A stretch of DNA of 61,543 nucleotides from Nitrospirota bacterium (GTDB taxonomy: Bacteria; Nitrospirota; UBA9217). Each line of letters begins with the position of its first letter. Within the stretch, counting starts at the first letter, position 1. The translations under genes were made by a program, and so were the position numbers. The DNA is taken from assembly GCA_029858565.1 (NCBI GenBank), contig JAOUEV010000013.1:1-61543 (forward strand), read 5' to 3'. Under the pieces are notes generated by a model that was not told the origin of the DNA, did no database searches, and saw only the letters and a program-made list of their open reading frames with translations. This document shows, one piece after another, positions 4,885 through 27,924 of this stretch.

Positions 4885-5733
4885 TTAATCGACAAGAATG
4901 ATGACCCGGCATTTCTCCAAAAAGCTCAGGTTCTGTGCAGCACCCTGCAGCATCGCGGCATCTGCGTTGGATATGACGACATCTACCCTTGCATCACCGG
5001 TGGTCTTTATGGCTTTGACCATGAGCGGTTTGTCTGTCACTCGCGGGTTCTGCTGAGCCTGGCCCTGGTCCTTCAAATAACCAACCATTCCTTCGCGAAC
5101 AGCCCAATCACGATTTATCCATGCTGATCCGTATACTTCCTTCCCATCCTCGTTCAGCACCTTGGGGGCCATTGCCGGACGTACGCCAAGTCCACGCGCG
5201 TCAACAATAAGACCCGTGAAGGCCTGTCCTGATGCAGACGGTGCGACCGCCATGGGAGCGGCGGGAGGTGTCTTGGGAAGCAGTTGGTCAGCAAGCGCGC
5301 CGGTCAGTTTCATACCGACCGTGACCTCTACCGATCCGTCGGACATATACTTCTTGTCCATGATCATCGCCCCTTGGACAAAACCGCTCACCTGGGTGCG
5401 GATCACGTCGCTGGTAACCATGAAGTTCTCGACCGTGGTTTGAGAATCCACGCGCACCCCTTTTACGGACTCCAATAGATTCCGATAAGCGACGACCTGC
5501 GCTGCCCGCTCGGCCATGGCCCGGGCCTGGGCGGGATTCGCCGGATTCGCCGGTGGCGCACCGATGCCTACCGCAGTGATCACACTGGTGGTCCAGTCGA
5601 TCTTGCCCGAGGAACCGACCGAGGTCTCAACATCCTTGACTGTTCCGATCATCTGGGCATGCACCGGATTTGACAACACCCCGACCAGCAATACTGCTGC
5701 AAGAACAAACATTAACAATCCTTTCGCTGTCAT
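4885..5733 (-). CDS. LPP20-like secreted protein
   Basis: Start ATG 5733 with AAGGAGG RBS; signal peptide; strong paralogy to 1109-2182. Confidence 0.7.
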   Translation of the reverse strand: MTAKGLLMFVLAAVLLVGVLSNPVHAQMIGTVKDVETSVGSSGKIDWTTSVITAVGIGAPPANPANPAQARAMAERAAQVVAYRNLLESVKGVRVDSQTTVENFMVTSDVIRTQVSGFVQGAMIMDKKYMSDGSVEVTVGMKLTGALADQLLPKTPPAAPMAVAPSASGQAFTGLIVDARGLGVRPAMAPKVLNEDGKEVYGSAWINRDWAVREGMVGYLKDQGQAQQNPRVTDKPLMVKAIKTTGDARVDVVISNADAAMLQGAAQNLSFLEKCRVIILVD

Positions 5734-5884
5734 GACCAACCTCCTTAGAAATATAATTGCCTTATTGATGGATAGCACGTTTTTGTGAAGCAAGAGCAGG
5801 CAAAATGAACGATGTGCCGAATGATTCGCAATTACGATGTCATATAGCACTGAATGAGTCAAGGTATTTTTCCCACAACGGAGA

Positions 5885-5964
5885 TGATGTGAGGAACGTT
5901 TTGCAATGCTGAACGCCGCATTCGCTTTCCCCTGGTCGTCGCCGGTAAATACTATGATCAGCAC
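5885..5964 (-). pseudogene. Possible degenerate N-terminal fragment of cob(I)alamin adenosyltransferase (CobO/BtuR)
   Basis: Translation LIIVFTGDDQGKANAAFSIAKRS resembles the CobO P-loop IIVxTGNGKGKTTAAFG, but is broken and does not continue. Confidence 0.3.
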
Positions 5965-5972
5965 TGTCCGAA

Positions 5973-6551
5973 TCAGGAAAGTCGTGACTCAACAACATTC
6001 CAATTGATATTCGAAAAGAATGCCTCAATGTAATCCGCTCGTTTCAGTTGATAATCAGTTAAATAGGCATGCTCGAAAACATCCATAATGAGCAGCGGAG
6101 AACATCCCGTCAGATGGGCGACGTCATGTTCGTTGATCCATGAATTGAACAGGCGATCGCCTGCATGATCGAAATACAGGACTACCCAGCCAATTCCCCT
6201 GATGGTACCGCAGGCCTTGAAATCCTTTTCCCAAGCTTCGAGGCTTCCAAATTCCTTTTCCAATTTCCCGGCAAGTTTACCTGATCGGCTTAGGGGACCC
6301 GCACCTTTCAGATTATCAAAATACAGCTCATGAAGACGCATGCCGTTGAATTCCCAACCAAAGCGTCTCTTCAGCTCTGCATATTCAGGCACGGCAGTTT
6401 TACCATCCTTTAGCATCTGAAGCAGTATATCGCCGACCTTGTTCGTATTAGCGACGTATCCCTGATAGAGCGTCACATGGTTCTTAAGAAGCGTTTCACT
6501 GAACCCTTTCATACCGACAAGTTGAGCATAATCTTTTGCAGCATAGGGCAT
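5973..6551 (-). CDS. sod: Fe/Mn superoxide dismutase (ChrC-like)
   Basis: Metal ligands in LKNHVTLY, LHELYF and DVFEHAY; GIGWVVL motif. Confidence 0.9.
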   Translation of the reverse strand: MPYAAKDYAQLVGMKGFSETLLKNHVTLYQGYVANTNKVGDILLQMLKDGKTAVPEYAELKRRFGWEFNGMRLHELYFDNLKGAGPLSRSGKLAGKLEKEFGSLEAWEKDFKACGTIRGIGWVVLYFDHAGDRLFNSWINEHDVAHLTGCSPLLIMDVFEHAYLTDYQLKRADYIEAFFSNINWNVVESRLS

Positions 6552-6621
6552 GACGCACCTCCGCACGATAGAAACTTCTTTTGTGATTTTACAATGATAG
6601 CATCTTGTCTTCTAAAACTCA

Positions 6622-6655
6622 AGTACAGCAGCACCGACAGTACAGCAGCACCGAC
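6622..6655. repeat. Perfect 17-bp tandem duplication
   Basis: AGTACAGCAGCACCGAC x2 in the divergent sod/nuclease intergenic region. Confidence 0.9.
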
Positions 6656-6717
6656 GTTTACCACCACGAGGACGGTTTTGCTTGACATACATGTGATGAC
6701 CGGCGTATTACGGGAAC

Positions 6718-7308
6718 ATGAGCATCAGATCATCATCAACCTTCACGCACATCACCTGCTGCCCGGGAAGACGACCTTCCGGGACATTCCGCATTACCTC
6801 CACGCTTCTTTTCTCGATGCTGCTTCTGTTAGCTTCCTTCCCCACGCAGAGCACAGCCGAATCGCCTACTATGGCGAAAGTGACCAGAGTGCACGACGGC
6901 GATACGGTAACACTTAGCATTGATGGTAGATCTGTCCGAGCCAGACTCATCGGGATAGATGCGCCCGAAATGGGGCAGGAGCCGTGGGGAAAGATGAGCC
7001 GTACCTATCTGAAAGGCCTGATACGGGAGATCAAAGGCCGCGTATTTATCGAAACCGATATCGTGCCGTATGATAAGTATGATCGTCTTCTGGTGTATCT
7101 CTGGACACCTGACCGCCGAAACATGCTCAATGAACGCATGATTCGCGATGGCTATGCCGTACTGTTCACCCTGCAGCCGAACAGCAGATACGCTGGCAGG
7201 TTTGTGCAGGCACTGGAGTCAGCAAAAAAATCCGGCGCCGGCATTTGGGGGCCTGAGGGTCTCAAAGAACTACCCCGGGATTACAAGAAAGCCCATCCCC
7301 GAAAATAG
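6718..7308 (+). CDS. Thermonuclease (staphylococcal nuclease family)
   Basis: VHDGDTV, RLIGIDAPE, DKYDRLLVY, LNERMIRDGYA, AKKSGAGIW. Confidence 0.92.
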   Translation: MSIRSSSTFTHITCCPGRRPSGTFRITSTLLFSMLLLLASFPTQSTAESPTMAKVTRVHDGDTVTLSIDGRSVRARLIGIDAPEMGQEPWGKMSRTYLKGLIREIKGRVFIETDIVPYDKYDRLLVYLWTPDRRNMLNERMIRDGYAVLFTLQPNSRYAGRFVQALESAKKSGAGIWGPEGLKELPRDYKKAHPRK

Positions 7309-7325
7309 ATTGTCGGTCCGGCAGT

Positions 7326-8155
7326 CTACCCTTTGACGCATGCAAGAGGTCGCACCCGGACGACTTTACGGGCAAGTCCTGCCTGGTGAGAGGCTTCGAC
7401 CACCTCGGATACGTCCTTGTAGGAACCAGGCGCCTCTTCCGCAATCCCGGAATAGGAATGTCCGCGAACAATGATCCCCTGCGTTTCAAGAGAACGTACA
7501 ATATCGCGGCCGTGCCATTGTTTCTTCGCCTGGGTACGCGACATTGCCCGTCCCGCGCCATGGCATGCCGATCCAAATGCTACTCCCATTCCCTCCTCGG
7601 TGCCCGCAAGAATGTAGGAAAAGGTGCCCATGGTCCCGCCGATCAGTACCGGCTGCCCAACATGGCGGTATTCCAGAGGCAGATCTGGCCGCCCAGGGCC
7701 AAAGGCTCGGGTTGCCCCTTTCCGGTGAACATAAACCCTCTTTTTCTTCCCATTGATCACGTGTGTTTCCACTTTACAGGTGTTATGACTGACGTCATAG
7801 AGCATCTTGAGACGCCCCTCAGGATAGATCTCCTCGAATATCTCTCTGATCAGATGCGTGATGATCTGTCGATTTGCTAGCGCACAGTTGATCCCCGCGC
7901 TCATTGCGCCGAAATAATCCTTCCCTTCCGGCGAGGTTATCGGAGCCGACGACAGTTCGCGGTCCCGGATAGGCAGTTGGAAACGCCTGGCAGCGCCTGC
8001 AAGTTTCTTCAAAGCATCGGTGCCTATCTGGTGTCCCAGCCCCCGGGACCCGCAGTGCAACGAGACGACCACATCATTCCTGCGGAGCCCCATGGCAAGG
8101 GCGGTTTTGTCGTCATACACTTCATCGATAGCCTGCACTTCGAGATAGTGGTTAC
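7326..8155 (-). pseudogene. rtcB: 3' part of host RNA ligase RtcB (interrupted gene)
   Basis: Begins (G)GT AAC CAC TAT CTC GAA GTG CAG = GNHYLEVQ; contains HCGSRG, YDVSHN, HRKGATRAF, SACHGAGR, EEAPGSYKD. Confidence 0.93.
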
Positions 8156-8161
8156 CGCCGC

Positions 8162-8237
8162 TTTTATTTAGTAATTATAATTCACGATATTGTTATTCAC
8201 GATATTTGTAATATTATATCGCGAATATTCATGATAT
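8162..8237. repeat. Element end A: terminal IR plus recombinase-binding box array
   Basis: TTTTATTTAGT (8162-8172); TTCACGATAT at 8181 and 8196, inverted ATATCGCGAA at 8216, TTCATGATAT at 8228. Confidence 0.8.
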
Positions 8238-8586
8238 TCATTCTAGCAGATAAAATTTAGTAACCGTTGATAATTCTGAAGGCACGTTCAAAATCTAATT
8301 TGGAGTATTTAAAACAAAAGTAAAGAGTGTTCTGCTTTTATATATTTGCTTGAGCGATGAAGAGTCACATTGTAATGCGCATCCCTGCGGAACTATAACC
8401 AATTTGATGCCATGAGGTGATTTCCAGTGTTCAGGATGTTTTTCCAGTTCGTCAATTGTCGACAGTACCAGAGACATTTAGCCTCAATAGGGGGGTAATA
8501 GGGCATCGAAATGGTCTTCAGCGCGATTAATTCTCAGGTTGGGCTTGTAGACAGTTTGCGATATGCTATTTCTATGGGAGCATTCG

Positions 8587-9111
8587 TTATCTCTCGGAGT
8601 CGACATTGAACCAGGGCCGCCACTTGCCGATCAACAAGTCTTCCTTAAAAAATCTTTCCGCAATATCTTCCGGTTTATAGACTTCATAACTGAATCCGAC
8701 GCTCTTGGCAATGAGCTCCAAAGGTTTCTTTTCGTTTGGAAAGATATGTTCAATTCCGTATCGCAACTGGCAGCTGGTCGTGGCCGCCTTTTGTTTTCTG
8801 CCTGTCTTGGGAATCTTGTGAACGCGGCCCGCAGAACCTCGAAGCAAGTGTTGCGCAAAACGCTTTCTCAAATTTGTTGATTTTCCGACATAGAGGCATG
8901 GATAAGCCAGATCTTTGGGCCACCAGTTCTTAAAATGAACGTCAACCTCTTTGCCTCCGGGACCTGCCAGAACAATGTGTGTATTTGCTGTCAGAAGCCT
9001 TGAGCGCTTATCGATCCACCAGAATGCATACACGCCAGGTTCTTCAGGTATTGAAAGCCGAGATCCATTGGTCAAGGTCTCAATACTTTTAATATCACGT
9101 CTTAAATTCAT
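8587..9111 (-). CDS. GIY-YIG nuclease family protein
   Basis: PGVYAFW...CLYVGKSTNLRKRFAQH; C-terminal E...RPWFN. Confidence 0.8.
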   Translation of the reverse strand: MNLRRDIKSIETLTNGSRLSIPEEPGVYAFWWIDKRSRLLTANTHIVLAGPGGKEVDVHFKNWWPKDLAYPCLYVGKSTNLRKRFAQHLLRGSAGRVHKIPKTGRKQKAATTSCQLRYGIEHIFPNEKKPLELIAKSVGFSYEVYKPEDIAERFFKEDLLIGKWRPWFNVDSER

Positions 9112-9127
9112 AAATTAGCCGCACATT

Positions 9128-10057
9128 TTATTCAGCGCTAGAAACAGATTCCATTGCCCTTTCGAACAATTTGGAAAAAGCCTTCACTTTGGTTTTACCA
9201 GGGTCAATCTTATATTCAGCCTGCTTCCACTGCTCGCTATATTTATCCATCTTGATGCCCTTCGGCTGGTTCTTTTCGGCGACAGATTTCGGAAGTTTAA
9301 AAAAGAACGAGAAAGACTTTGACCCGATCCAGTGGATGCCAAACGCATTAAAGAAGCCGTGCTTAAAACCACAGTAGTTCTTGTTGTATTTCATCTCAAG
9401 AGGCCAGCCTTTCTTCTTGACTAGCTTTCCCGTTTCCTCGGCGTAAGCGAGAAAGGCCTTTACGCTATTCTTGTTTCGATATTTCTCGTAGAAAGCGCGA
9501 TCATAGGTTTCAAGTCCTTTAACGGCTGCGGTCTTTTTGCTCTGCTCGGGCTCAAGCTTGTTCACGAGCAAGAAATGATTTGATCCTTCAACCCACCGCT
9601 TTATTTCGATCAGATCGACCTTATAATTGATCGTATTAATGAGCTCCAGCGTCGAACGTTCAATTGATGGGGCAATAATTATGACCCGCACATCATAGTT
9701 GTCCCAATTGACCTCGACTTCATCTTCGCGGCGCGGGGCTTCAAGCCAGAGATTCTTGATGGAATCGGGATTTTTCTGAGCCCAAATACCATAAGCGAGC
9801 ACTTGCGGGATGATGGATGAATTGACGGACACATTCTTCATTTCGATGATACAAACATTGCCCTCGCTGTCTATTCCGATGATGTCGGGAATGCCGGCCT
9901 TTTTACCGCCACGTATTTGGCGCTTGATAAGGATAATATCTTCGAGAATTTCCTTTGATTCAAAGATTACTTTTTCGAAAGCCTCTTCTGTATCAAAAGG
10001 CGTCGAAAGCAAATTAAGCGTTTTGTTTCCCTTCCTCTTCCAGAATAGGTTTGCCAT
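9128..10057 (-). CDS. PD-(D/E)xK nuclease, NucS/EndoMS-like N-terminus with uncharacterised C-terminal domain
   Basis: EEAFEKVI, IPDIIGIDSEGNVCIIEMK, QVLAY; GGAGG RBS before ATG 10057. Confidence 0.7.
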   Translation of the reverse strand: MANLFWKRKGNKTLNLLSTPFDTEEAFEKVIFESKEILEDIILIKRQIRGGKKAGIPDIIGIDSEGNVCIIEMKNVSVNSSIIPQVLAYGIWAQKNPDSIKNLWLEAPRREDEVEVNWDNYDVRVIIIAPSIERSTLELINTINYKVDLIEIKRWVEGSNHFLLVNKLEPEQSKKTAAVKGLETYDRAFYEKYRNKNSVKAFLAYAEETGKLVKKKGWPLEMKYNKNYCGFKHGFFNAFGIHWIGSKSFSFFFKLPKSVAEKNQPKGIKMDKYSEQWKQAEYKIDPGKTKVKAFSKLFERAMESVSSAE

Positions 10058-10096
10058 CTCGCCTCCATCGGCCATTGGACCACGGCCCGGGATCTC

Positions 10097-12763
10097 CTAT
10101 GATTTAAACTGACTCACCAAGCCGCTTATCGACATATTCTCCATGATCACGTCATGGGGGATGAGAACATACTCCCAGGGCTTGCTTCCATTTGATGCAG
10201 CATGATCAGAGGCATGACTACACCATTTTACAGCCGCCGCCTTCTTCGCCAGAACATCTGGGCTTTCCATGTCATTCCGTGCTTTAGGCTCGAGTATATA
10301 GATACATCGATCGGCTTCAGCTACAAAGTCAGGAACATATTCGAGATTCTCGACGCCAAACTTGTAGTAGATCTGAAACTGCCCCTTTGTCGGCCTGAAC
10401 CACTTGAGAACCTCACGGTCCAGGATGACAGCAAGCTTCCGTTCGGTATCAGAATGGAATTTCTGGTAAGGATAGAGGCAATGCTTGAATCCCCCGAATA
10501 CCATTTGTGCCATCCGGCTTTTATCATCGACCGTGTTGCGGAAATCGTAAACAGGACCGCCGTAGGAATACGCGGTGTCCCGGATTTCCTGAAATCCCTT
10601 GCTGACGACCACCTCGTAGTCTACTGCTTTTTCCCACTGATGTGCTTGCATCTGAACATGGATAAACGCGGCCAACTGCTTTTGGTGATAAACCAAGACG
10701 TTCTTGGCATCATCATCCGACAAGTACGAACGCAGATGTTTGACGACCTGGCCGGACAGATCATACAGCAGATCAGCATGCTCATCATAGGAGACGTCGT
10801 CAAAATCTATGAGATTGCGTACAAGATAGTCTTCCATTCGAAGTTCCTGCTGCCTGCTTCCTCCGAATGAAAGCGTCTCCTGCTCATTGGTCCGTAAGGC
10901 CTGTATCAGCAAGTCCCGCTCGACCGGCTGGTAATTGATCCCGGAACAATCGAGTATGAATTTATTGAATCCCGTAGTTGTCTGGCCCTTCGGCACAACA
11001 AGGATCCTAGGGATATCGATCGTCTGTTTGACGACAAGTTCGGCAGTTTTGGCAACGACAGCGGAGATATCAAGAGACTCCTTAACGCCTGGCAATGTTT
11101 GCTGCGCGGAGGCCACCGAGGCAGCAACCTCCTCAGCTATCCTCTTTTGGACCTCAGGTTTCAGAAGATGGCTGGCAGAAGGCAGGTTCTCGTATTTTTT
11201 CATAACACTCACAGCTGCCTGGGCTATCTTCTGCTCAGATTCATTTGCAAAAGCCGGAGCGGCAGGTGCTTCTGTTTGGCCGGCAATCGGCTTTTGCTGC
11301 GCAAGTCCTATTTGAGCTGCAAGATTCGATTGGACAACGAGAGTTTTCAATTTTTGATCCGCAGATGGCTCTAAAATGATCTGTTGCAATCTAATTGCTG
11401 AATCTGGTCTATTGGCCTCGTCGATAATCTCCTGGAAGCGGTCGTGAGCAACGATATTCAGGCGATCCACGCTGCTTACGCCGGTTCGTCGACCGTAAGG
11501 CAGTCGCAAACCGCGCCCGATAGACTGTTCGATAAGGACTCGTGCATTAGCGGCCCGAAGAGGGACGATGGTATAAAGGTTCGTTACGTCCCAGCCTTCC
11601 TTAAGCATGTTAACGTGAATAACGATCTCGGTTGGCTCGTCAGGACTCTCGACCTTCAGAAGGCGCTCGACCATCTCATCTTCCTCGGCCCCGGTCTTAC
11701 TTGAATCGACCTGGATCACCTTATCTTTGTATCGCCCCTCAAAGAACTTATCTGACTTGATGTGCTCGATCAACTTGCTCGCATGGGTTGTATCCCTGGC
11801 GATAATCAACATAAAAGGCTTCACGATCCGCTGGTCGGCCTGTCGGGCATAGGTTTCGAGCTCAACCTTGGTATTCTCATGGATCCGGATGCCATCTTCG
11901 AGCTTGATCTGCTCAATCTGCTCCGGAGAGAACTGCTTGGGATCAAAGTTCTTCTGCGTAACTACAGCCGGCTCTTTAACGAAGCCGTCTTCCATCGCTT
12001 TTGCCAGGGGATAATCATAGATCACGTTCTTGAATTTGAGGGGACCTTTCGGCGTTTCTACAAGGGGTGTAGCCGTCAGCTCAAGGCCGAGAATCGGCTT
12101 GAGTTCGTTGATCGCGCGCACGCCGGCCGATGCGCGATATCGGTGCGACTCGTCCATAATGAGAACAAGATCGTCTAGTCCGGCAAGATATTCGAAATAG
12201 CTTTCTCCAATGTACTCAGAGAGGCGCTTGATACGAGGCGATTTGCCGCCCCTGACCTCGGAATTGATCTTGGAAATATTGAATATATTTACATGGACCG
12301 ACAGATCGATACCGGGCAAGGTAGCGCGTATACCCCGGCCTGACGCATAGTTATCCCCGGTAATGATGCTGGGCGGTTCAACAGCGAACTCAGCGATCCC
12401 CTTGAACACATACTTCGAGGTATTTGGTGTGAAATCAGTAATAAGCTTATTGTAGATCGTAAGATTCGGTGCAAGGACGAAGAAATGGTTGATGTTGTGA
12501 GCAAGATGCAAATAACTGATAAATGCGCCCATGAGGCGTGTTTTGCCGACGCCTGTTGCCAGGGCAAAGCAGAGTGAGGGGAAATCTCGTTCAAAGTCTG
12601 TGACAGTCGGGAATTCGGATTTGATTGTTTCGAGCGCTGCTTGGATGTCGGCTCCCTTGCGAGGTGGTACGATCTCGGTAATACGGTCAAGAATTTCAAG
12701 TGAGCGTCTTTGTGGCTGCCGGAGGCTGAGCCGTCCTGAAATAGCATTCACATGACGGTTCAT
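10097..12763 (-). CDS. res: Type III restriction enzyme, Res subunit
   Basis: ALATGVGKT, MDESHRY, LELTATP, MLKEGWD, QSIGRGLR; C-terminal YVPDFVAE..EPK nuclease; overlaps mod (ATGA). Confidence 0.9.
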   Translation of the reverse strand: MNRHVNAISGRLSLRQPQRRSLEILDRITEIVPPRKGADIQAALETIKSEFPTVTDFERDFPSLCFALATGVGKTRLMGAFISYLHLAHNINHFFVLAPNLTIYNKLITDFTPNTSKYVFKGIAEFAVEPPSIITGDNYASGRGIRATLPGIDLSVHVNIFNISKINSEVRGGKSPRIKRLSEYIGESYFEYLAGLDDLVLIMDESHRYRASAGVRAINELKPILGLELTATPLVETPKGPLKFKNVIYDYPLAKAMEDGFVKEPAVVTQKNFDPKQFSPEQIEQIKLEDGIRIHENTKVELETYARQADQRIVKPFMLIIARDTTHASKLIEHIKSDKFFEGRYKDKVIQVDSSKTGAEEDEMVERLLKVESPDEPTEIVIHVNMLKEGWDVTNLYTIVPLRAANARVLIEQSIGRGLRLPYGRRTGVSSVDRLNIVAHDRFQEIIDEANRPDSAIRLQQIILEPSADQKLKTLVVQSNLAAQIGLAQQKPIAGQTEAPAAPAFANESEQKIAQAAVSVMKKYENLPSASHLLKPEVQKRIAEEVAASVASAQQTLPGVKESLDISAVVAKTAELVVKQTIDIPRILVVPKGQTTTGFNKFILDCSGINYQPVERDLLIQALRTNEQETLSFGGSRQQELRMEDYLVRNLIDFDDVSYDEHADLLYDLSGQVVKHLRSYLSDDDAKNVLVYHQKQLAAFIHVQMQAHQWEKAVDYEVVVSKGFQEIRDTAYSYGGPVYDFRNTVDDKSRMAQMVFGGFKHCLYPYQKFHSDTERKLAVILDREVLKWFRPTKGQFQIYYKFGVENLEYVPDFVAEADRCIYILEPKARNDMESPDVLAKKAAAVKWCSHASDHAASNGSKPWEYVLIPHDVIMENMSISGLVSQFKS

Positions 12764-14391
12764 GATTCATCCTCCTCGTCAAACAATCCCTGTTGCCCCT
12801 TCTTCGGAGGAGCTTTAGGCAGATTCTCAACCTGCAGGCTGTAATCGTCATGCCCCCATTCGCAGCGTTTCAGAACCGTATTCGGGATCTTCTTAATCGT
12901 CAAGTTTGAATACCGATCGGATTTCCCTCGGAATGCAGAGCATAGGACCAGAAGTGACCGCCCCACCCCGACTTCATCGGATAGAGCCTGGAGCTGGTCT
13001 TGGTTCAGGTTCTGGGTCGTGACATAAATGAAATCCTGCTCGTTCGAATGGCCATGCTGCCAGTAGATTGCATCGCTCGGAGCATAGGTGAATCCTTCAA
13101 GTTTGCAAAGAGCTTCTGCCAGCATCGCTGCATTGTACTCTTTATTGATGACCCAGTTACCCCATTTGTCCTTTTCTAGCAAAGATGGTGCAAGGCGGTA
13201 ATATCTGAATCCACCTCCACCCTTCCAGTCTACGGCTTCGGTAATGCCACCTGTGTCCTGACCGTCGATTACCTTTTTCATACGCGGAATGATATGCGTG
13301 TGGCAGTGCTCACCCAGCTCCACCATGATCCAGCGCCGTCCCATCTTATGAGCTACAGCGCCAGTTGTTCCGGAGCCGGCGAAAGAGTCGAGGACGAGAT
13401 CACCTTGTTTGGTAGAAATTTCAAGAACACGTTGAAGCAAACGCTCGGGCTTAGGGGTATCAAAGACATTGCGCGCTCCATACAAACCAATCATTTCTTT
13501 TTTCGCCTCATCTGTATGCCCGACTTCATCATGAGGCCACCAGTTATGTGGCGTCATGCCATCACGCACCTCAGATAAAAATAGTTTTAGTGCAGGAACA
13601 GTGTTACGCCCATCGCGTCCCCACCAAATACGGTTCTCTTCGACGTGACGTTTATGTGTATCAGGGTCATACTTCCAAGCTTTCTTAGTATTTTTAATAA
13701 TATCGCCCGTATTCGGATTGACGATGTCATAGCAAAGATTCCGCCGTTTTTCAGGAGTTGCCTGATTCAGATAATCAACCGCTTTCCACGGCCCACGAGG
13801 ATCATTGTCTGGATTGTTGTATCGCGCCGTAGACTCTTCACTTCTCGGAAGTAAGTTGTTTTGAAACTTATCGCTCTTGGCATAAACGAGTACAAAATCG
13901 CAAATTGTCGCGATTCCTTGATAATTATTGCTGACACTATATTTACGCTGCCATGTAACAGTAGTCTTGTAGTTAGTCCGTCCAAACACCTCATCGCACA
14001 ATACCTTAAGGTAATGGACTTCGTTGTCGTCAATTGTAATCCACAGCGAACCATCCTCCGAAAGCAACTGTCGAATAATCTCCAGGCGGTCCCGCATCAG
14101 CGACAACCAGATCGAGTGCTCAACACCATCATCATAATGCGTGAAGGCACTGCCTGTGTTGTAAGGCGGATCAATGAATATGCACTTCACCTTACCGGCA
14201 TACTCCTGCTCAAGCGCTTTCAATGCCAGCAAATTATCGCCGAAGATCAGTCGGTTATCGAAAATATCTTTCTTCGCCACCCGATGTGGAGCATGATAAG
14301 ACTTCTCTGGGCCTTCAAGCAAAATGCGCGGCTCCAGCTTCGGCCGGTTCTCTTTGCCGATCCATGTTAGTTCAAGTTTTTGTTTTTTCAT
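12760..14391 (-). CDS. mod: Type III R-M DNA methyltransferase, Mod subunit
   Basis: FIDPPYNTG, TPKPERLLQR, DSFAGSGTTG; adjacent to res. Confidence 0.92.
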   Translation of the reverse strand: MKKQKLELTWIGKENRPKLEPRILLEGPEKSYHAPHRVAKKDIFDNRLIFGDNLLALKALEQEYAGKVKCIFIDPPYNTGSAFTHYDDGVEHSIWLSLMRDRLEIIRQLLSEDGSLWITIDDNEVHYLKVLCDEVFGRTNYKTTVTWQRKYSVSNNYQGIATICDFVLVYAKSDKFQNNLLPRSEESTARYNNPDNDPRGPWKAVDYLNQATPEKRRNLCYDIVNPNTGDIIKNTKKAWKYDPDTHKRHVEENRIWWGRDGRNTVPALKLFLSEVRDGMTPHNWWPHDEVGHTDEAKKEMIGLYGARNVFDTPKPERLLQRVLEISTKQGDLVLDSFAGSGTTGAVAHKMGRRWIMVELGEHCHTHIIPRMKKVIDGQDTGGITEAVDWKGGGGFRYYRLAPSLLEKDKWGNWVINKEYNAAMLAEALCKLEGFTYAPSDAIYWQHGHSNEQDFIYVTTQNLNQDQLQALSDEVGVGRSLLVLCSAFRGKSDRYSNLTIKKIPNTVLKRCEWGHDDYSLQVENLPKAPPKKGQQGLFDEEDES

Positions 14392-14401
14392 TTCTTTCGT
14401 T

Positions 14402-16156
14402 TTACGCCTTTACTTGACGTCTAAGATTTTCTACAGCGGCGCGAATAGCGTCAGCATTGGAACATTTTTCAGACCATTCACGCCAGAAGTTCTTTGTCAA
14501 GCTAAGTGGTGTCGCAACTGGTTTATCTAGCTTAATTCTTGAGGGAAGCAATATGGAGTCGCCGAGTACTATCGCCTCACCAATATCGAGAAGTGGCAGG
14601 ACATCGGCTATTCCCGCCATGCTATCGGGCATAACTGATTTCACCGCGGACTGATCCTGCTCATTTGTCAGCCGTAATGCGATAAAATTGTTACACTGAC
14701 TTAAGATTGTTCTGCTCACATCAGATGGGCGCTGGCTAACTACGAGTAGCGCAAAACCATACTTTCTACCTTCTTTGGCGATACGCTCAAAAGTATCAAG
14801 AGCGCGTTTTGATGCAGCATCTGCATCAGCACGAACAGGCAGGTAAAGGTGGGCTTCATCACAGACAAGACAAACCGGTGTTCTCGAAGATGCTTGCATC
14901 CAAAATTGAACATCATACAAAACGCGGGCAAAAACACTTACTACAGTCGGCAGGACATCGGCAGGAACTTCTGAGAAATCGACTACCTTAATGCCTGATG
15001 CGGTCGTGCATGTAGTAGACAGAAAAGTAACTGCCTGACCTTGAAGCCATGTGTAAACATTTGACTCTTTCGGAGGCTGAAACAGAAATCCATAACGGCG
15101 ATCTTCAATTTTAGCTCGCAACCGGCTGATGAAGCGGGTAAGCTTGCCATTCCACTCGCCCTTTCTATCCGTTCCAGCGCGCGCTCCAGGCTCTCGCTCA
15201 TTGTCGAGCCGATCCAATTCTGTTACGACCGAAGCAAGATCGTATGGGATTGGCGAATCAACTGTGAAAGTAGCTTCCACTTCTTTCATTTTCTCTTCCT
15301 GCAATCTCTTTCGCTTACTTTCACCGACCAATCCAGTGAAGATCATCGCTTGATTTGGTGCGTTCTGGTCTGTTCGGTCTAATAACATGGTAAGCATTTC
15401 ATCACGATTAAGAAGCCAGTATGGCAAAAAGAGACTTTCTGGTTTCGGTTTAGCCAAGTCTCCTGGTCCAGCTACCTTAAAATACGCGGCATAGCCATTC
15501 TTTTGTCCTTTCGCGAGAGAAGCATACTCACCATGCATATCGAGCAATATAATATTCGAGTGGTTTAGCGTATTAGCTCTTTCGAGGAGTGCCGCAACTG
15601 TATAACTTTTGCCACTCCCGGTACTCCCTAATATCGCGGCATGTCGTTGAAAAAATCTGTCACCATCGGCGACAGCCTGAGCAGTCGGATCTATTGCGAA
15701 GTGACCCAATTTTAGCGCTTTATCCGTGGGTACATCCTGAGACAATACTCCCATGAACGCAGTTAGATTAGTACCTTGAATAAGGTGAGCAGGCTGATCA
15801 ATCTGTGGACAAGAATCGGCACCGCGTTTGAATGATGGGCCACCAGCACCATCTTTTGATCTATATGTCCCAACGAGGACCGCTCTAATTGTATCCTGAA
15901 TCTCTTCTGCCTGAGGACCAGCTTCCTCTTCGGCTCCTTCAGTCGCGGCAAGTGAATCCGATGGTAGTCGTGTCACGCGTTCTACAATTGAGATCAGAAA
16001 CTGATGACCAGTAGCGCCTTGTATGGCTATCAGGTTTCCTACCATCACTTGCTTGAGTAGTTCGTGGTCGTCAACGTGGATAAATACTCGCATTGTATCT
16101 ACAGACATTACTCTTCCAATTGGTTCCGACTCAAAAGACATTGCTGCATTTGGCAT
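14402..16156 (-). CDS. herA: HerA-family ATPase (Sir2-HerA defence system)
   Basis: HAS-like N-terminus, HAAILGSTGSGKS, LLDMHGEY, CDEAHLY, IAKEGRKYG, VSQRPSDV. Confidence 0.88.
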   Translation of the reverse strand: MPNAAMSFESEPIGRVMSVDTMRVFIHVDDHELLKQVMVGNLIAIQGATGHQFLISIVERVTRLPSDSLAATEGAEEEAGPQAEEIQDTIRAVLVGTYRSKDGAGGPSFKRGADSCPQIDQPAHLIQGTNLTAFMGVLSQDVPTDKALKLGHFAIDPTAQAVADGDRFFQRHAAILGSTGSGKSYTVAALLERANTLNHSNIILLDMHGEYASLAKGQKNGYAAYFKVAGPGDLAKPKPESLFLPYWLLNRDEMLTMLLDRTDQNAPNQAMIFTGLVGESKRKRLQEEKMKEVEATFTVDSPIPYDLASVVTELDRLDNEREPGARAGTDRKGEWNGKLTRFISRLRAKIEDRRYGFLFQPPKESNVYTWLQGQAVTFLSTTCTTASGIKVVDFSEVPADVLPTVVSVFARVLYDVQFWMQASSRTPVCLVCDEAHLYLPVRADADAASKRALDTFERIAKEGRKYGFALLVVSQRPSDVSRTILSQCNNFIALRLTNEQDQSAVKSVMPDSMAGIADVLPLLDIGEAIVLGDSILLPSRIKLDKPVATPLSLTKNFWREWSEKCSNADAIRAAVENLRRQVKA

Positions 16157-17196
16157 TAGAGTACTCCTTTATTGAACCCTTCGAGGTTCCAGAGTTGATC
16201 GTCCACAACAAGTTCCTCTCCGCTAGACGTAATAATACGAGTCCGATAATCCGTCGCCGAAACTGAGGTTAACACAATAACTTCTGAGTCTTTGCTATTT
16301 TCAACTATTTTCATAGCATTGGTTGTTAGCTCCTTTGCTATGATAAGAGTAGGTTTTGTAAGCTTCAATCCGGGACAAACATATTGCTCTAAGTGGTCGT
16401 CGTTAAAACCATAGCCGATAAACATTAAACGAGTTGCATTAGTGGCCGCTTTATTACCCGAAGTTCGTTGTTCATCAAAAGCCCACCGAAAGCTCTCTCG
16501 GTACTTACTCGCGCCGGGAGTAATGATAAGTGGTGCTTTCCCTATATTCACTGGGCACCGCACTAGTTTGCCATCTACTTCAAACCAATCTAAGCTACCA
16601 TGTGGTTTATGTACACAAAGACACCGCAGGGGTCTAAACGCAGCATTTTTCCCAGCATAGTATGCTTCTCTATGAGCATCTGCTGCTTTTCTCGGATCTG
16701 AATGACCATGTAGGTAACCGGTAAACCTAGAATTGACTCCGACTTCAGCTGCTTCTGTTGCAAATTCAATTAAGCGATCATAGTTGGGTGTGATGAGATG
16801 AAACTGCTTACCGGCTCTCATAAGGTGTTTAATAAACGTAGTAAATGGTAGCTGTCGCTCCCCGTTTAATACACGCTTAAATACACTCTGCTCTGCTTCA
16901 AGAATCAAGTCCGTAGTAATGGATACGATTGACTCAACGGTCGTTGATTTCAACGTAACTTTTTCCATTGCAGCTTCAAGATGATCCCCAGCATCTAGAG
17001 ATGCCACAATGGCATCCCAACCGGAGTCTGGCTCTGTCAAGAGTTTCTTGGGCATTTCTGCCTTTAGATATGCTGCAAGTGTTCCCATCCCCGGAACACC
17101 TTCTGCGATTGAAAGACCAGTACCAACAACCATGAGCAAACCCTCTTGAAGATGGTCCTGGAGACTTCTCACAATTGTCGTAATTTCAAGTGGCAT
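16156..17196 (-). CDS. SIR2-family NADase (Sir2-HerA defence system)
   Basis: VGTGLSIAEGVP, ITPNYDRLIE, HKPHGSLDW, FIGYGFNDDHL; translationally coupled to herA. Confidence 0.85.
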   Translation of the reverse strand: MPLEITTIVRSLQDHLQEGLLMVVGTGLSIAEGVPGMGTLAAYLKAEMPKKLLTEPDSGWDAIVASLDAGDHLEAAMEKVTLKSTTVESIVSITTDLILEAEQSVFKRVLNGERQLPFTTFIKHLMRAGKQFHLITPNYDRLIEFATEAAEVGVNSRFTGYLHGHSDPRKAADAHREAYYAGKNAAFRPLRCLCVHKPHGSLDWFEVDGKLVRCPVNIGKAPLIITPGASKYRESFRWAFDEQRTSGNKAATNATRLMFIGYGFNDDHLEQYVCPGLKLTKPTLIIAKELTTNAMKIVENSKDSEVIVLTSVSATDYRTRIITSSGEELVVDDQLWNLEGFNKGVL

Positions 17197-17201
17197 ATTG
17201 C

Positions 17202-18476
17202 TTACGTAAGCTCCTCAGGAGCCTCTAAAGCGTTCAAGCTAAGGCCCTCTATCTCCTGTAAGGTTTTCCCCGCAATGCCCTGCAAGTCGCCGTACATACC
17301 GACGGTTGACTGCATTACTCTACCAATTTGTTCTTCACGCTTTGCCCACTGTTTTGTGATCGCCTTCTTCTCTTTATCAAGATCTTCTTGCATGGATGAA
17401 AACGCTTCCACAATAGCCTGGACTCGCTGACGGAACCGCGGCCCGGTGAGGTATTGATAGACCATCTCAGTCTTTGTCTGCTGGCCTTCAGTAGCTTTTC
17501 TTGCCGCAGCTACTTCGATAAGAGTCTGACGCAAAGTTATCGCCACGGGTAGTGCGGTTTTCGGAGGAGTAACCCATACGCCGTCAACCAGATCAAAAGA
17601 GGCTACGTCCTTCGGCAGTACCTGGCTGACAATCACCGCCATTTCTGCCTTCGCTGTCCGTTGGTCCTCTCGGAGCTTCGGAAGCCAGGTATCGCTCCAA
17701 TTTTTGGTTCGCTTTGATTCCCACAGAATCGTTCCGCACACCTGTCCAAGCGGTCCTACAACACGCTGCAATATATCGCCACCATGCTCTCCCTTGGGTA
17801 CCGGCTCAATGACATCCCGGGGGAATTTAGCCCGAAGCAGTCCTTCAAGCTCCAATTCCTGGACTTCCCCCTGGAGCTGCTGAGACCCTTGCTCTGCTCG
17901 CCGCTTAAGGTCTTCGATCTGTTTTTGCATAGAAGTGATGGTTTGCTCTTTTTCCATCACTTTCAGCTTCATCTGTTCTTCCGTTTCCTTGCGTGCCTGA
18001 TCACGGGTAGCAGTTAATCCCTCCTGGACACGCTTCTCAACGGTCAGCTCCATTTCTCTCTTGGCATCATCAAGCTCGCGCTGTTTGCGGATAAGATCAG
18101 CCTGAGCCTTCTGAGCCTCTCCAAGCTTTTCATTCTGTTGTTTAAGGATATCTTGAAGGTCGCAAACTTCCTTGTTCTTCTGCTCAAGGTCATTGCCTAT
18201 CGCAAGTTTTGCTTTTTTCGCCTCCTCTGAGGCGATCTTTATGCGTTCTTGCTTCAGTCTTTCCGCGATTTGGTCGTCAATGCTTTCCCTTGCCTTAGAA
18301 AGGGCTTCTTCTTTTTCACGAAGAGAAGACTCTCGTTTTTCAATGTCCGCATCCTTTTTAGCCAAGCGCTGCTCAAAATCCCGTCGAGTTGACTCGATCA
18401 ACGGAGCCGCAAGCGATTCGGTCAGCTTAATCTCAGCATTACACTTCGGACATTTGATTGTAGGTTCGGTACTCAT
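17202..18476 (-). CDS. DUF2130-family coiled-coil protein
   Basis: IKCPKC Zn ribbon, long coiled coil, SQQLQGEVQELELE, ILWESKRTKNWSDTWLPKLREDQR. Confidence 0.85.
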   Translation of the reverse strand: MSTEPTIKCPKCNAEIKLTESLAAPLIESTRRDFEQRLAKKDADIEKRESSLREKEEALSKARESIDDQIAERLKQERIKIASEEAKKAKLAIGNDLEQKNKEVCDLQDILKQQNEKLGEAQKAQADLIRKQRELDDAKREMELTVEKRVQEGLTATRDQARKETEEQMKLKVMEKEQTITSMQKQIEDLKRRAEQGSQQLQGEVQELELEGLLRAKFPRDVIEPVPKGEHGGDILQRVVGPLGQVCGTILWESKRTKNWSDTWLPKLREDQRTAKAEMAVIVSQVLPKDVASFDLVDGVWVTPPKTALPVAITLRQTLIEVAAARKATEGQQTKTEMVYQYLTGPRFRQRVQAIVEAFSSMQEDLDKEKKAITKQWAKREEQIGRVMQSTVGMYGDLQGIAGKTLQEIEGLSLNALEAPEELT

Positions 18477-18506
18477 ATTCTGCTCCCTAAACACACGACA
18501 ACATGC

Positions 18507-20264
18507 TTAACTTCTTTTCAGTTCCTGAATGAGCCAATCAAGTTGTTTCCGAGCGCCGCTCAGAATATCGTTGTACGTCACAATTTCAACGCCGGGCTCT
18601 TTGTATTGAGCGGATACTGTTGCCCCCTTTGTCCCTCCAATGATAAGGACATCGATCTGAGAGCTTATATGCGCTGATATCTCATGACGATATTTTGTCG
18701 CTTGCTGGTAGTCATTCAGCCCGATTTCATGTGATGGGCGTTTGAATTCTATAAGAAGATGCCTACTCAGCACATTGTTGACGAGAAGGAGATCTGGACG
18801 GTCTGACGGATCGCTCCCTTTGTATTTCTGACCGAGATACTCATCAACAACACGTCTGAGTGTTTTATTCGACGACATGAGGCTATACTCCGTCCCTATC
18901 ATCCAGAGACTGTTCTCGACGGCTTTATGCACCTGGTTTTCAAGCGTTGCTGGATCAGCAATTAATGCATCGACATAGTCGAGAAAATTAAGGCGCTGCG
19001 AAAGCTGTCTACTCATGATTGCCGTTTCCAATAATCCAAACTCTTCTAGCGCCGCAGCAAGGTGGGCCACATCCGTGTGACTAGCCTCGTCGATGTTTTC
19101 CAAGACAGCTCGGTACTCATCTCGCTCCATTGCATCGAGAACAACCGACACTATGGGTTCAACCCGATCTTCGCTCTCATTGTAAAACTTCTGAAGGATC
19201 CTCTTTATTGCTCGATCTGCGAACTCGCGCTTGTATTCAGGCAGAGCTTCAAGTCTCTTTTGGATTTTCTGCTTTAACCTGGCTTGAGCCAGGTGTATTT
19301 CCTGTCCGTAAACTTTCTTAACTTCGGCTCGCAGATGAGGAACTACCCATTCCTTAACAACATCAAAACCCTTGCTATTGTCAACAATAGCTGCCCAATC
19401 AGCTGTTATGTCGTTGGCCAATCCGTCGACTTCAATTTCGCCGTAAATCTTCCCGAGCAGCTTAGCAGGGAAATCGTCGGATTTATCCAGCCCAAAAAAG
19501 CGAGGTTTGCCAATCGACTTACCAGCTACGCGTACCACAATACCGGATCTCTTAATTTGCTTCCTGCCATCTGACACTGTAAAGCGAAGCTTAACAGGGC
19601 CGATACCGGGCAGGGTCACTTCATGCGTTATGGTCGGCCCAGACAAGTCCTCGATGTCCAGGGGCTTTTTATTCACTCGAATTGCAAAATCCGTCTCTCT
19701 GCCATAGTCATGAATTAATAATTCCCTGAATTTTTCCGGCATAGGGAAATTTAGTGCCTGATTCAGGTGAGAAAGTGTAATCACAGTACCGCAAAGATCA
19801 GCATTGCAGGGCGTCGAGATAACATCAATAGGAACGCGTTCTATGTCTTTGCCTGCCTCGATTAGCTTCTTTTTGTCAATGGTAATTGTCGTTGTATTAC
19901 CTCGTGCATTTGTTTGAAGCGACATCAGTTCTGCGGCCATAAGACCTGCAAATTTACCAATACCCTTACGCCCTTTAACAAGACGGTTTTTCCCTGACGT
20001 TCGATCACCTTTGCGGCTCCGACGGTCATTCGCGACAAAAAGATACTCCGCCCGCACTTCGCGCTCCGTCATACCAGTCCCGTTGTCCATAATAACAATA
20101 GGATCAGATGTATTCGGCGCCGGTAATGTAATCGATACCTCCGTGGCATCTGCGTCCCAGGCATTGTCTACCAGCTCCTTCAAAGCATCTTCAGTGGAAG
20201 AGTATGTTTCTCCCAGCAAGGATGCTAATCGCGAGTCAACTTGGAAGTGAGCCGCTTTCGTCAT
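18507..20264 (-). CDS. GHKL (MORC/HATPase) ATPase fused to a C-terminal PD-(D/E)xK nuclease
   Basis: LKELVDNAWDADA, DNGTGM, GRKGIGK, GTVITL; C-terminal RPDLLL...LIEFKRPS...QATKY. Confidence 0.8.
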   Translation of the reverse strand: MTKAAHFQVDSRLASLLGETYSSTEDALKELVDNAWDADATEVSITLPAPNTSDPIVIMDNGTGMTEREVRAEYLFVANDRRSRKGDRTSGKNRLVKGRKGIGKFAGLMAAELMSLQTNARGNTTTITIDKKKLIEAGKDIERVPIDVISTPCNADLCGTVITLSHLNQALNFPMPEKFRELLIHDYGRETDFAIRVNKKPLDIEDLSGPTITHEVTLPGIGPVKLRFTVSDGRKQIKRSGIVVRVAGKSIGKPRFFGLDKSDDFPAKLLGKIYGEIEVDGLANDITADWAAIVDNSKGFDVVKEWVVPHLRAEVKKVYGQEIHLAQARLKQKIQKRLEALPEYKREFADRAIKRILQKFYNESEDRVEPIVSVVLDAMERDEYRAVLENIDEASHTDVAHLAAALEEFGLLETAIMSRQLSQRLNFLDYVDALIADPATLENQVHKAVENSLWMIGTEYSLMSSNKTLRRVVDEYLGQKYKGSDPSDRPDLLLVNNVLSRHLLIEFKRPSHEIGLNDYQQATKYRHEISAHISSQIDVLIIGGTKGATVSAQYKEPGVEIVTYNDILSGARKQLDWLIQELKRS

Positions 20265-20275
20265 ACGTTTTTACC

Positions 20276-23122
20276 TCAATTGAGTGTCCAGCGAAGACTG
20301 AACAGGTTTGCAGCCGATATAGTCTGGTTCAACTTTCCCTCTATCTCACCGATAAGTTTTTCTCTCTGGCGGTCAATCTCGTCCTGAGCTTCGAACAGCG
20401 ATTTCCTCTTCTGACTGCGTTGATGTTCAAGCGCCTTGATCTGTTTTTGCCCAACAAGCTTGTCCTCTAAGGTAAGCGCCGCCGTCGTTGCACGTCTGGT
20501 TTCCTTGATCTGTCGATCAATATCCTTTATCTCCCGCTCCAGCCCCACTTTGAGATCGTCCGCCCACCCGTCAAGCTTATCTGCTTCAACTTCAAAGAAT
20601 CGGGCATTTCTTTCAGATATGGTTTTCTGGATGGAGTTTTGCCTCGAGGCGATAATCGCTTGTAGTTTGTCATTATCAGGCATATATGTCAACAGGGGAA
20701 TGGCCTTTGCCGGCAAGGATAGTAGCCTTTGCGCCAGGTCCTCCTCCATAGTCTGTCCGTCATCAGTAATCGCCGCGCAGAGGATATGATCTTCTGCCTG
20801 ATCGAGTGATTCCACGGTAAAGAGCCTAAGAAGTAGTTCACCGCTGCGCCCAATATAGGGTTCCAGCATGCTAACCTTGCCCTCATGGCCCTTATAGTCA
20901 AAGGTGATCTCTGCTGCCTGCAGAATCCGGCTCTTTGCGCGTTCGAGGACCCCCGATGCGAGCGGATGAGTCAGACGGTACAGATGTGCCTCACCAGAGC
21001 GACGCGGTAGTTCATAGAGACCAAGGGGAATATCGTCGCCAAAAGGACTGGCCTTCAGCTGAAATGTCGACTCATCCAGGAACTCTGCATGATCCCGCAA
21101 CTCATAACGCGTAATCTGCATCAGCAGCCGCTCATAGCGGTTTAGATATTGCCTTGAGTTTTCATCGCTTACCCTAAGCTTTTCCCGCACCTCATCGTCG
21201 AAGTTTTCAAGCAGCTGTCTCCGAGTACGCGTCATCGCATCGTCGATCTGGAGGTTGAGCTCAAGCTGTAACTGGTCAAACGATGCCTTGATTTCCTCAG
21301 GAGTGCGACAGCGTTGATAGATGTCGGCGATTCTCTTTTCAAAGTCCACGCCGGATTCGATAGCCCCCAGGACCTCATCGCTTGCGCCGAACACGCCCTC
21401 GAAAAGCATGAACTTCTCGGAAAGGAGCTGGAACACCCGAAGATCAGCCTCGTTGTTCCGATTCAGAAAATTTACGACAACAACGTCGTGTTTCTGACCG
21501 TACCGGTGGCAGCGTCCGATGCGCTGCTCAATGCGCTGAGGATTCCAAGGCAGGTCATAGTTCACCACAAGGGAGCAGAACTGAAGGTTGATGCCCTCGG
21601 CGCCGGCTTCCGTGGCGATCATGATCCGCCCCTTTTCCCTGAAGTAATCAACCAGCGCCGACCGCATGTCCGCTGTGCGGGAGCCTGTGATTCGATCCGT
21701 TCCTTCGTGCTCCTTGAACCAGTCCTTGTAGATCTGGCGTGAACTGTCGTCGGTATTCGTCCCATTGAATAGAACGATACCTTCGCTCCAGGGGCTTTCT
21801 GCAAGTACGCGCAATAGGTAGGACTGGGTACGGCGGGATTCAGTGAAGATGATCGCCTTTTCCTCGGCACCGATCTCACGCGCCTTGGCAAAAGCGATTT
21901 CTAAAGCCTTAAGAAGCGCTCTTCCCTTTGCATTGTACTGGATAGATATTGCGAGCTGCCTAAAGCTTTCGAGATCTTTGATCTCGCGATCGATCGCTGC
22001 CAGATTTTCGGCAGACAATGGCGCATCTTGCTCTCCATCAGTCCATTCATCCGCTGTCTCACCAAGGGCTTCATACTCCTTGTCGAGTTCATCCGCCAAT
22101 GGCTCTTCCGGTTCCTGTTTTTTGAGGCGAAGGTGGAGACGCTTGCTCAGGGTTTCGAGCGAGCCAGCTATTGCAAATGATGAAGACGCGAGTATTTTGC
22201 GGAGGACCAGGGTCATAAGTGACCGCTGGCTCGTAGGCAAAGCCTGCAGATTGTCGCGACGGAGATAATCGGATACCAGATTATACAACCGATCTTCGCT
22301 CTCCTCAGGCGTAAAGGGCTGAACGATTGAATACCGTTGTGTAAACCGCACGTAGGGTAAGACTTGCCGTCGAAGGGTTCTATGGCAAATCGGCTTAAGC
22401 CTGGCCTTAAGTGCTGTGAACGTATTTTTATCACTCAAGTCAGAATACTGCTCCTTGAAACTCTTCAAATCGCCAAAAGTATGCTCATCGATGAATCCAA
22501 CCAGGCCATAGAGCTCCAGAAGTGAATTCTGAAGCGGCGTGGCTGTCAGTAGAAGCTTGGGTGCCTGCTTCAGCGCCTGCTTTAACGTATTAGCGATTAC
22601 ATTAGATGGCTTATAGACATTCCGCAAGCGGTGGGCTTCATCGATCACCACAAGATCCCAGGGAATGGCGTTCACATCCGCAGCTTTGCTCCGCGCAAAT
22701 TGATAGGAACAGATGACAAGCTTGCCTGACTCGAAGGGTCGGAAGTTGCCGTTCTTTATCGATTCGTTGAAGGACTTGCTTTCAAGGATGACGGACGGGA
22801 GGAAAAACTTCTCTTGAAGTTCCTGGTGCCATTGTTTGCGGAGGTTGGCTGGAGTGATTATGAGGATGCGCCGATGTCGTTCCGCCCAATGTTGGGAGAT
22901 GACCAGGCCCGCTTCGATGGTCTTTCCCAGGCCCACCTCGTCTGCCAGTATGCCACCTCGGGAAAGAGGGGACCGGAAAGCAAAGAGCGCAGCATCTACC
23001 TGGTGGGGATTGAGGTCGACCTGAGCATCAACCAAGGCGCCTGCAAGCTTCTCGATATTGTCAGAAGCGCAGCGTTTCGTCAGCTCGTACGCATAGTATT
23101 TGGCATGATAATCTGTGAGCAT
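20276..23122 (-). CDS. SNF2-family helicase associated with type III R-M loci
   Basis: LADEVGLGKTIEAG, VIDEAHRL, LLTATPLQN, EGINLQ, QRIGRCHRYGQ. Confidence 0.9.
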   Translation of the reverse strand: MLTDYHAKYYAYELTKRCASDNIEKLAGALVDAQVDLNPHQVDAALFAFRSPLSRGGILADEVGLGKTIEAGLVISQHWAERHRRILIITPANLRKQWHQELQEKFFLPSVILESKSFNESIKNGNFRPFESGKLVICSYQFARSKAADVNAIPWDLVVIDEAHRLRNVYKPSNVIANTLKQALKQAPKLLLTATPLQNSLLELYGLVGFIDEHTFGDLKSFKEQYSDLSDKNTFTALKARLKPICHRTLRRQVLPYVRFTQRYSIVQPFTPEESEDRLYNLVSDYLRRDNLQALPTSQRSLMTLVLRKILASSSFAIAGSLETLSKRLHLRLKKQEPEEPLADELDKEYEALGETADEWTDGEQDAPLSAENLAAIDREIKDLESFRQLAISIQYNAKGRALLKALEIAFAKAREIGAEEKAIIFTESRRTQSYLLRVLAESPWSEGIVLFNGTNTDDSSRQIYKDWFKEHEGTDRITGSRTADMRSALVDYFREKGRIMIATEAGAEGINLQFCSLVVNYDLPWNPQRIEQRIGRCHRYGQKHDVVVVNFLNRNNEADLRVFQLLSEKFMLFEGVFGASDEVLGAIESGVDFEKRIADIYQRCRTPEEIKASFDQLQLELNLQIDDAMTRTRRQLLENFDDEVREKLRVSDENSRQYLNRYERLLMQITRYELRDHAEFLDESTFQLKASPFGDDIPLGLYELPRRSGEAHLYRLTHPLASGVLERAKSRILQAAEITFDYKGHEGKVSMLEPYIGRSGELLLRLFTVESLDQAEDHILCAAITDDGQTMEEDLAQRLLSLPAKAIPLLTYMPDNDKLQAIIASRQNSIQKTISERNARFFEVEADKLDGWADDLKVGLEREIKDIDRQIKETRRATTAALTLEDKLVGQKQIKALEHQRSQKRKSLFEAQDEIDRQREKLIGEIEGKLNQTISAANLFSLRWTLN

Positions 23123-23412
23123 TCCTAATATATTGCAAAGAACGGTCAATTTTGATTCGTACGTAAGCCATAGAATATATTAAATATTGTCTTTCTTCAA
23201 GCAATAAATTTGGCTCAACAAATAACGTCAATACTTTGCTGGCCGGAGCGTATTTTGTTAGGCAGGCTTCAATTGACTTGCAGATGAGCTAGAGCGAATG
23301 GCAGCACATGGTCCGGCTAGAGCAGGAAAACGGCTTCTGTGAACGCACAGGGGGTTTTTTTCAGGGATCAGGATACTTAGAAACGTCAGTGATTATCTCT
23401 GCCGTGCGGCCT

Positions 23413-23721: not shown

Positions 23722-23742
23722 ATGTATTTGCCCGTTGTGCCC

Positions 23743-24006: not shown

Positions 24007-24149
24007 TTATTTAGCGGATTCTAAAGCTTGGCGGTTCGAAGGTACGCGCCTAAGTCTACATTATATGACGAATTTGTCAATAATTATCTACTCCCTATGT
24101 TGTGTTAAAAATCTCCCTGAAAGTCGAAGATAACAACTAGGGAGGTTGC

Positions 24150-27894: not shown

Positions 27895-27924
27895 GATCGA
27901 CTCCACGAATGACGACAACCCAAC

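Follow-up and report, generated by a model that had tools for sequence, protein, structure and literature searches.

A Tn554/GInt-type island splits the rtcB gene of its bacterial host in the stretch of DNA analysed here (61,543 nt, hereafter the window). The best explanation for GCGGCG, six foreign bases at the far junction of the island, is a spacer acquired at an earlier rtcB insertion site, a reading that we consider probable. The footprint mechanism itself has already been published for Tn554, SE and GInt elements and is applied here; what is new is rtcB as a target, a spare copy of that gene on the element and an unusual clustering of substitutions where the spare copy has its own target site. 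We searched open-access papers for a connection of rtcB to Tn554, and to genomic islands and tyrosine recombinases, and found none.

Anatomy of the insertion

Read on the minus strand, both junctions agree exactly, in coordinates and in letters, with the original prediction. The element spans positions 8162–31268 (23,107 bp) and is accompanied by six extra bases at 8156–8161, which together interrupt host rtcB at the G-S-G-N-H codons. At the left junction, the host sequence ATG GGC ACA CTG GGC TCG G passes into TTTTCTTTAGT, with GCTCGG occupying 31274–31269 and 31268 being the first base of the element. At the right junction, ACTAAATAAAA ends at 8162 and is followed by GCGGCG (8161–8156) and by GT AAC CAC TAT CTC GAA. 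The absence of a target duplication, which had also been claimed, holds at both junctions, where microhomology amounts to 1 bp only, and the reading frame is indeed kept with either hexamer, GCTCGG giving L-G-S-G-N-H and GCGGCG giving L-G-G-G-N-H.

The 11-bp element ends form inverted repeats that are identical at 10 of 11 positions, and exact matches to the terminal arm within the window are confined to these two ends. The left, ginA-proximal arm (TTTTCTTTAGT, 31258–31268, minus strand) adjoins a sub-terminal region upstream of ginA that contains ACGATAT-type repeats and a hairpin (31113–31257, minus strand), and the right, distal arm (ACTAAATAAAA, 8162–8172, minus strand) adjoins a sub-terminal region with three TCACGATAT-type repeats (8173–8238, minus strand). 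Sub-terminal repeats of the TCACGATAT type are present at both ends of the element.

The interrupted gene is of the long, archease-linked type, and an intact host archease gene (31954–32385, minus strand; Pfam Archease, 149 bits) lies directly upstream of it. The N-terminal piece of rtcB (31269–31887, minus strand) matches positions 1–152 of Pfam RtcB and ends in REMGTLGS, followed by a single G that opens the next Gly codon, whereas the C-terminal piece (7326–8156, minus strand) matches positions 152/160–426 and begins with (G)GT AAC CAC, that is, GNHYLEV. Both pieces are open, and orthologs of the N-terminal piece run directly on into GNHYLEV. Another organism encodes an RtcB N-terminal fragment, P0041, which is 84% identical in the compared stretch and ends in REMGTLGS-VFFSN, compared with REMGTLGS-VFFSF in the window fragment, where the tail is the translated element end. 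To judge from these shared protein ends, P0041 records a second insertion at this rtcB codon, independent of the one in the window.

Recombinase module and cargo

From the left end, the genes are ordered GinA, GinB, rtcB, GinC-like and GinD-like, followed by the cargo, and the recombinase module has a G+C content of 40–45%, compared with 49–55% in the flanks. GinA (29946–31112, minus strand; 388 aa) is a TnpA-like tyrosine recombinase (Pfam Phage_integrase, 55 bits) with 24% identity to Tn554 TnpA over 335 aa (E 1e-11). GinB (27925–29949, minus strand; 674 aa), a TnpB-like large tyrosine recombinase identified with Pfam, shares 23.5% identity with Tn554 TnpB on pWBG4 (tblastn, E 1e-11). The GinC-like product (25126–26730, minus strand; 534 aa) is a third recombinase-fold protein that matches Phage_integrase weakly (E 5e-4), resembles TnpB (E 9e-6) and is 32% identical to the third protein of the methylase-targeting relatives described below. 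The last gene of the module encodes a small GinD/TnpC-like protein (24660–25160, minus strand; 166 aa), which is DUF6262-like at 22.8 bits, a score below the cut-off, and resembles Tn554 TnpC at E 2e-6; TnpC is itself annotated as a DUF6262 family protein, and the GinD of a relative reaches 78 bits for DUF6262.

Among 5.8 billion proteins, GinA has 36 homologs at E < 1e-3, nine of which (P0005–P0013) are 53–62% identical. Neither the 63 other genomes searched in the host class nor the 400 others in the phylum yielded GinA, which suggests that the element is a recent arrival in the host lineage. With GinA alone as the query, no related loci were found in genome contigs; an alignment of the nine closest GinA proteins retrieved only distant, methylase-targeting elements from genome and metagenome contigs and no related loci from viral contigs, and matches in plasmids (tblastn) were all at ≤35% identity. 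Pattern matches in viral contigs (nine for the right end plus GNH codons, one for the left end plus rtcB codons) were attributed to chance, there being no gin or RtcB tblastn hit.

The cargo extends over ~16 kb (8587–24473, mixed strands; Pfam, PADLOC). It encodes an HTH regulator, a DrmD-like SNF2 helicase, a HATPase_c_3 protein, a DUF2130 protein, a SIR2-HerA pair, PDC-S18, a GIY-YIG protein and a type III methylase with its restriction enzyme, and by this predicted gene content the interval 8587–23149 is an anti-phage defence island. Conjugation genes were not found among the 20 proteins scanned with Pfam and PADLOC. A divergent HTH_3 regulator (24150–24473, plus strand) lies between the recombinase module and the cargo, and two small overlapping open reading frames without a Pfam family occupy 23413–23721 (minus strand) and 23707–24024 (plus strand). 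The interval 23413–24473 could be the control region of the island.

Host allele and occurrence of the two hexamers

The two junction hexamers had been offered as alternative reconstructions of the uninterrupted gene, and the orthologs fit the one with GCTCGG (31269–31274, minus strand), the hexamer adjoining the recombinase-proximal end. At the insertion site, GTLGSGNHYLEV is the reading shared by nine uninterrupted orthologs taken from related genomes, with codons TCN GGN AAY CAY; all nine encode G-S-G, and three carry exactly GCTCGG. Across the host phylum, the motif pattern was found in 328 of 400 other genomes sampled. Among 150 matches listed, of 340, and tallied by eye, the middle codon is TCN (Ser) in 138, Arg, Thr or Ala in 12 and Gly in none, and GCGGCG was not found at any of these 150 sites. 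Because the orthologs and the listed phylum sites are Ser-type in the main and never Gly, we take GCTCGG to be the host's own hexamer and GCGGCG to be foreign to the host lineage.

The foreign hexamer (8156–8161, minus strand), our candidate for a carried spacer, reads GGC-GGC-G(GT), or Gly-Gly-Gly, in the rtcB frame and shares three of six positions with GCTCGG (G, C and the final G). A random hexamer would give G-[G/S]-G in this frame with a chance of ~1/100 (1/4 × 10/64 × 1/4, assuming uniform bases). In a Firmicutes-type phylum (250 genomes sampled), 150 of 200 pattern matches were listed and tallied by eye; 76 of them are G-G-G rtcB sites, and 15 of these carry the exact string GGC GGC GG. 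The pattern is loose and admits chance hits, the reversed-pattern control being non-zero. Among the 120 proteins closest to the element-borne RtcB, 115 have GGGNH. On the strength of these two counts, GCGGCG is judged to be a common natural allele at this rtcB position outside the host phylum.

In an unrelated run (X2) of a sludge metagenome, a contig of 665 nt matches positions 7791–8156 with two differences and then departs from the window, its remaining 299 nt having no match within 5162–25161. This is what an uninterrupted rtcB would give and likely represents an empty site elsewhere, the allele of which is deduced from orthologs only; a close relative without the island probably lives in the source of the X2 sludge.

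Relatives that target a cytosine methylase gene

Cargo-less relatives of 5.3–5.5 kb (L013/L015, L014, L016, L017/L018 and L019) consist of four contiguous genes, A-B-C-D, and have no spare gene. Their GinA proteins are 31–33% identical to that of the window element, the A-B-C-D module as a whole shows 31–33% protein identity, their arms, GTTTATTTAGG and ACTAAACAAAA, are homologous to the left and right arms of the window element, and their sub-terminal ACACGATAG repeats are similar. The target is a C-5 cytosine methylase gene, entered between the codons of LECER and those of LQGFP; rtcB was not found in the host genomes of these methylase-targeting relatives. The contigs of L014 and L016 start two to three bases before the left end of the element, as expected of a repeated or circular element that breaks assemblies.

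In L013 (= L015; 9833–15294), the proximal hexamer is CGAACG and the distal one TGAACG; L017 (7288–12604) has CGAACG at both junctions, L019 (9827–15285) has TGAGCG proximally and CGAAAG distally, and in L016 the proximal hexamer is cut off by the contig start, the distal one being CGAACG. Either hexamer restores the same peptide, LECERLQGFP, in all three relatives with both junctions, and the differences between hexamers (one in L013, three in L019) are all synonymous. By our own arithmetic, a random hexamer would encode the residues needed at the methylase site in ~2 of 1000 cases. The distal hexamer of the relatives looks like another allele of the same target, as the original prediction had anticipated. 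It had been considered from the outset that GCGGCG might instead be an invariant part of the element end; among the four methylase-targeting elements (GinA at 31–33% identity, another target), the distal hexamer varies. A fixed end sequence appears unlikely, because the distal hexamers of the relatives differ between copies and each still codes for the target.

Comparison with known elements

Tn554 of Staphylococcus aureus inserts at att554, with a GATGTA core, in a radC-like gene. GInt elements excise as a circle, for which all four of their genes are needed. Tn916 is conjugative, encodes one integrase plus Xis and prefers AT-rich bent DNA to a single codon position in one gene. The window element resembles Tn554 in having homologs of TnpA, TnpB and TnpC in the same order at one end. 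It differs from Tn554 in its target, rtcB, in the two extra genes (rtcB and GinC-like) between the B and C equivalents, in element ends that are unrelated in sequence and in bearing defence genes (16 kb of cargo) instead of resistance genes, together with a spare copy of the target gene. Insertion is site-specific, without target duplication and with a 6-bp footprint at one junction, features that PMC10214605 gives for Tn554; a carried origin of the footprint is presumed here. According to the rule stated in that text for SE and Tn554, the intA-proximal junction receives the central 6 bp of the target, and the 6-bp spacer of the circle, derived from an earlier site, forms the distal 'footprint'. 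The window element fits this rule, since the host hexamer stands at its proximal junction and the foreign hexamer at its distal junction.

[quoted passage not shown] They share imperfect terminal inverted repeats with the window element but have the gene order intA-tfp-intB-srap, compared here with a small recombinase, a large recombinase, (rtcB), a degenerate recombinase and a small protein. The likeness to GInt lies in the architecture outlined in PMC5385486, namely a four-gene A-B-C-D module at one end, then cargo and a short far end that is AT-rich and poorly conserved. It extends to attL and attR, which are unlike, imperfect flanking repeats, hybrids of element and host sites, and the right end here is AT-rich and bears repeats. 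In the window element, however, rtcB splits the operon between B and C, and the target consists of catalytic-loop codons in mid-gene, whereas GInt targets are described in PMC5385486 as gene ends or intergenic sites. That source further indicates that GInt excision fits six-base staggered cuts, that attI takes up chromosomal letters and that the restored attB can take letters from attI. Like Tn916, the window element has about six unlike bases at its two junctions, an outcome that PMC10214605 explains for Tn916-type elements by staggered cuts and heteroduplex overlap. A single Int with Xis and conjugation genes, the equipment of Tn916, was not found among the 20 proteins scanned.

Origin of the distal hexamer

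Under the explanation that we prefer, the 23.1-kb site-specific island inserted into archease-linked rtcB at the codons of the G-x-G-N-H loop, which we take to be the metal- and GTP-binding loop of RtcB. Its tyrosine recombinases would cut both partners with a six-base stagger, as we infer from the junctions, and would tolerate unlike overlaps. After replication, the GCTCGG of the target would stay at the junction beside the recombinase genes, and the spacer of the circular form, GCGGCG, would stay at the far junction. This spacer would be a copy of the hexamer at which a previous insertion crossed over and, with a lineage that inserts at one rtcB position, would read as a Gly-Gly-Gly allele of another organism's rtcB. 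Excision could then leave either Ser or Gly in the restored gene.

The far junction might instead hold a constant attachment-site spacer that is not exchanged at each move and has been shaped by selection towards the commonest rtcB sequence. One far junction is known for the rtcB-targeting lineage, and a selected, fixed spacer would look identical in a single copy; GCGGCG is also the kind of allele that would suit a consensus, and selection for such a spacer is conceivable given the ten-fold better GInt integration reported in PMC5385486 when the element's site resembles the target. The relatives with homologous arms nevertheless have distal hexamers that differ between copies and follow the alleles of their target, and with a six-base stagger and unlike overlaps the chemistry set out in PMC5385486 and PMC10214605 leaves half or all of the products with a new spacer. 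Moreover, GCGGCG mismatches the present target at three of six positions, so it is not tuned to the present host. Taken together, these points make a constant spacer an improbable account.

Much less weight still attaches to the idea that the hexamer was picked up at a secondary site outside rtcB, or arose when the junction was repaired or mutated, and that its Gly-Gly-Gly reading is coincidental. Tn554-type elements can use secondary sites, and GC-rich hexamers such as GCGGCG are common in GC-rich genomes, but only about one random hexamer in a hundred fits G-[G/S]-G, two independent insertions at the same rtcB codon indicate strong site specificity, and the hexamers carried by the relatives always encode the target motif. 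Scarcely credible, finally, is an ordinary integrase insertion with an identical shared core, or an assembly chimera. A one-base shift of register does place CGGT at each junction, but with this core the host gene would be one base short and out of frame, contrary to nine of nine orthologs, and we rejected it for that reason. The P0041 fragment from a second organism breaks off at an identical position and has the same element-derived tail, and a contig of the likely source run, which does not count as independent support, spans the right junction without differences.

The derivation of GCGGCG from the rtcB of a former host, the central claim of the original prediction, is accordingly the reading that we judge likely, on indirect evidence; its distal position, the target-coding hexamers of the relatives and the natural occurrence of the G-G-G allele all argue for it.

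A spare rtcB within the recombinase operon

The element carries an intact rtcB of its own (26740–27918, minus strand; 392 aa; Pfam RtcB, 361 bits), with the motif GTLGSGNHF. The spare gene is of the short type, compared with the long, archease-linked type of the host gene. A search of the same genome recovered two rtcB copies, the split host copy and the element copy, the latter being the sole uninterrupted one. The spare gene sits within the recombinase operon, between the GinB and GinC-like genes, and because the A, B and C genes are contiguous in the relatives, we regard rtcB as an addition to the operon of this lineage. It is probably a replacement for the gene that the element destroys, and we infer that an intact rtcB in this operon makes up for the loss.

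At the DNA level, the spare motif reads GGC AGC GGA, so that the hexamer equivalent is GCAGCG, one base off GCGGCG; Gly occupies the position of its Ser in all seven nearest homologs. Against its 119 closest homologs, the spare RtcB shows six deviations among 155 columns that are at least 95% conserved, and three of the six (G144S, E150Q and Q152S) fall inside a nine-residue span at the target site. Of the 84 columns that are invariant in the 119 homologs, it departs from only two, by E150Q and Q152S, and the host RtcB retains both of the residues concerned (E and Q). The hypergeometric p value for clustering is 0.006 for ±8 codons and 0.06 for ±6 codons, with the interval chosen after the data had been seen.

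As a conjecture, the spare rtcB may have been altered to escape being a target, and its GCAGCG could have arisen by escape mutation or as an old scar. We put forward tentatively, and with some doubt, the broader proposition that the element moves the Ser/Gly codon of the RtcB active-site loop between unrelated hosts and carries a spare rtcB altered to a non-target. If this were true, the element would both replace and edit its target gene.

Implications

The DNA targeted by this branch of the family encodes highly conserved catalytic motifs, G-x-G-N-H in rtcB for one lineage and ECERLQGFP in the methylase gene for another, and targets of this kind exist in almost any host. Since crossover takes place within a reading frame, each carried hexamer translates into codons; such hexamers can act as a brief trace of previous hosts and may offer a way for individual codons to pass from one genome to another. 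RtcB repairs cleaved tRNAs, and for this reason the spare rtcB, which looks like compensation, matters for an island laden with anti-phage systems. The presence of an RNA-repair ligase and anti-phage systems on one element may matter for tRNA-cleaving defences or counter-defences.
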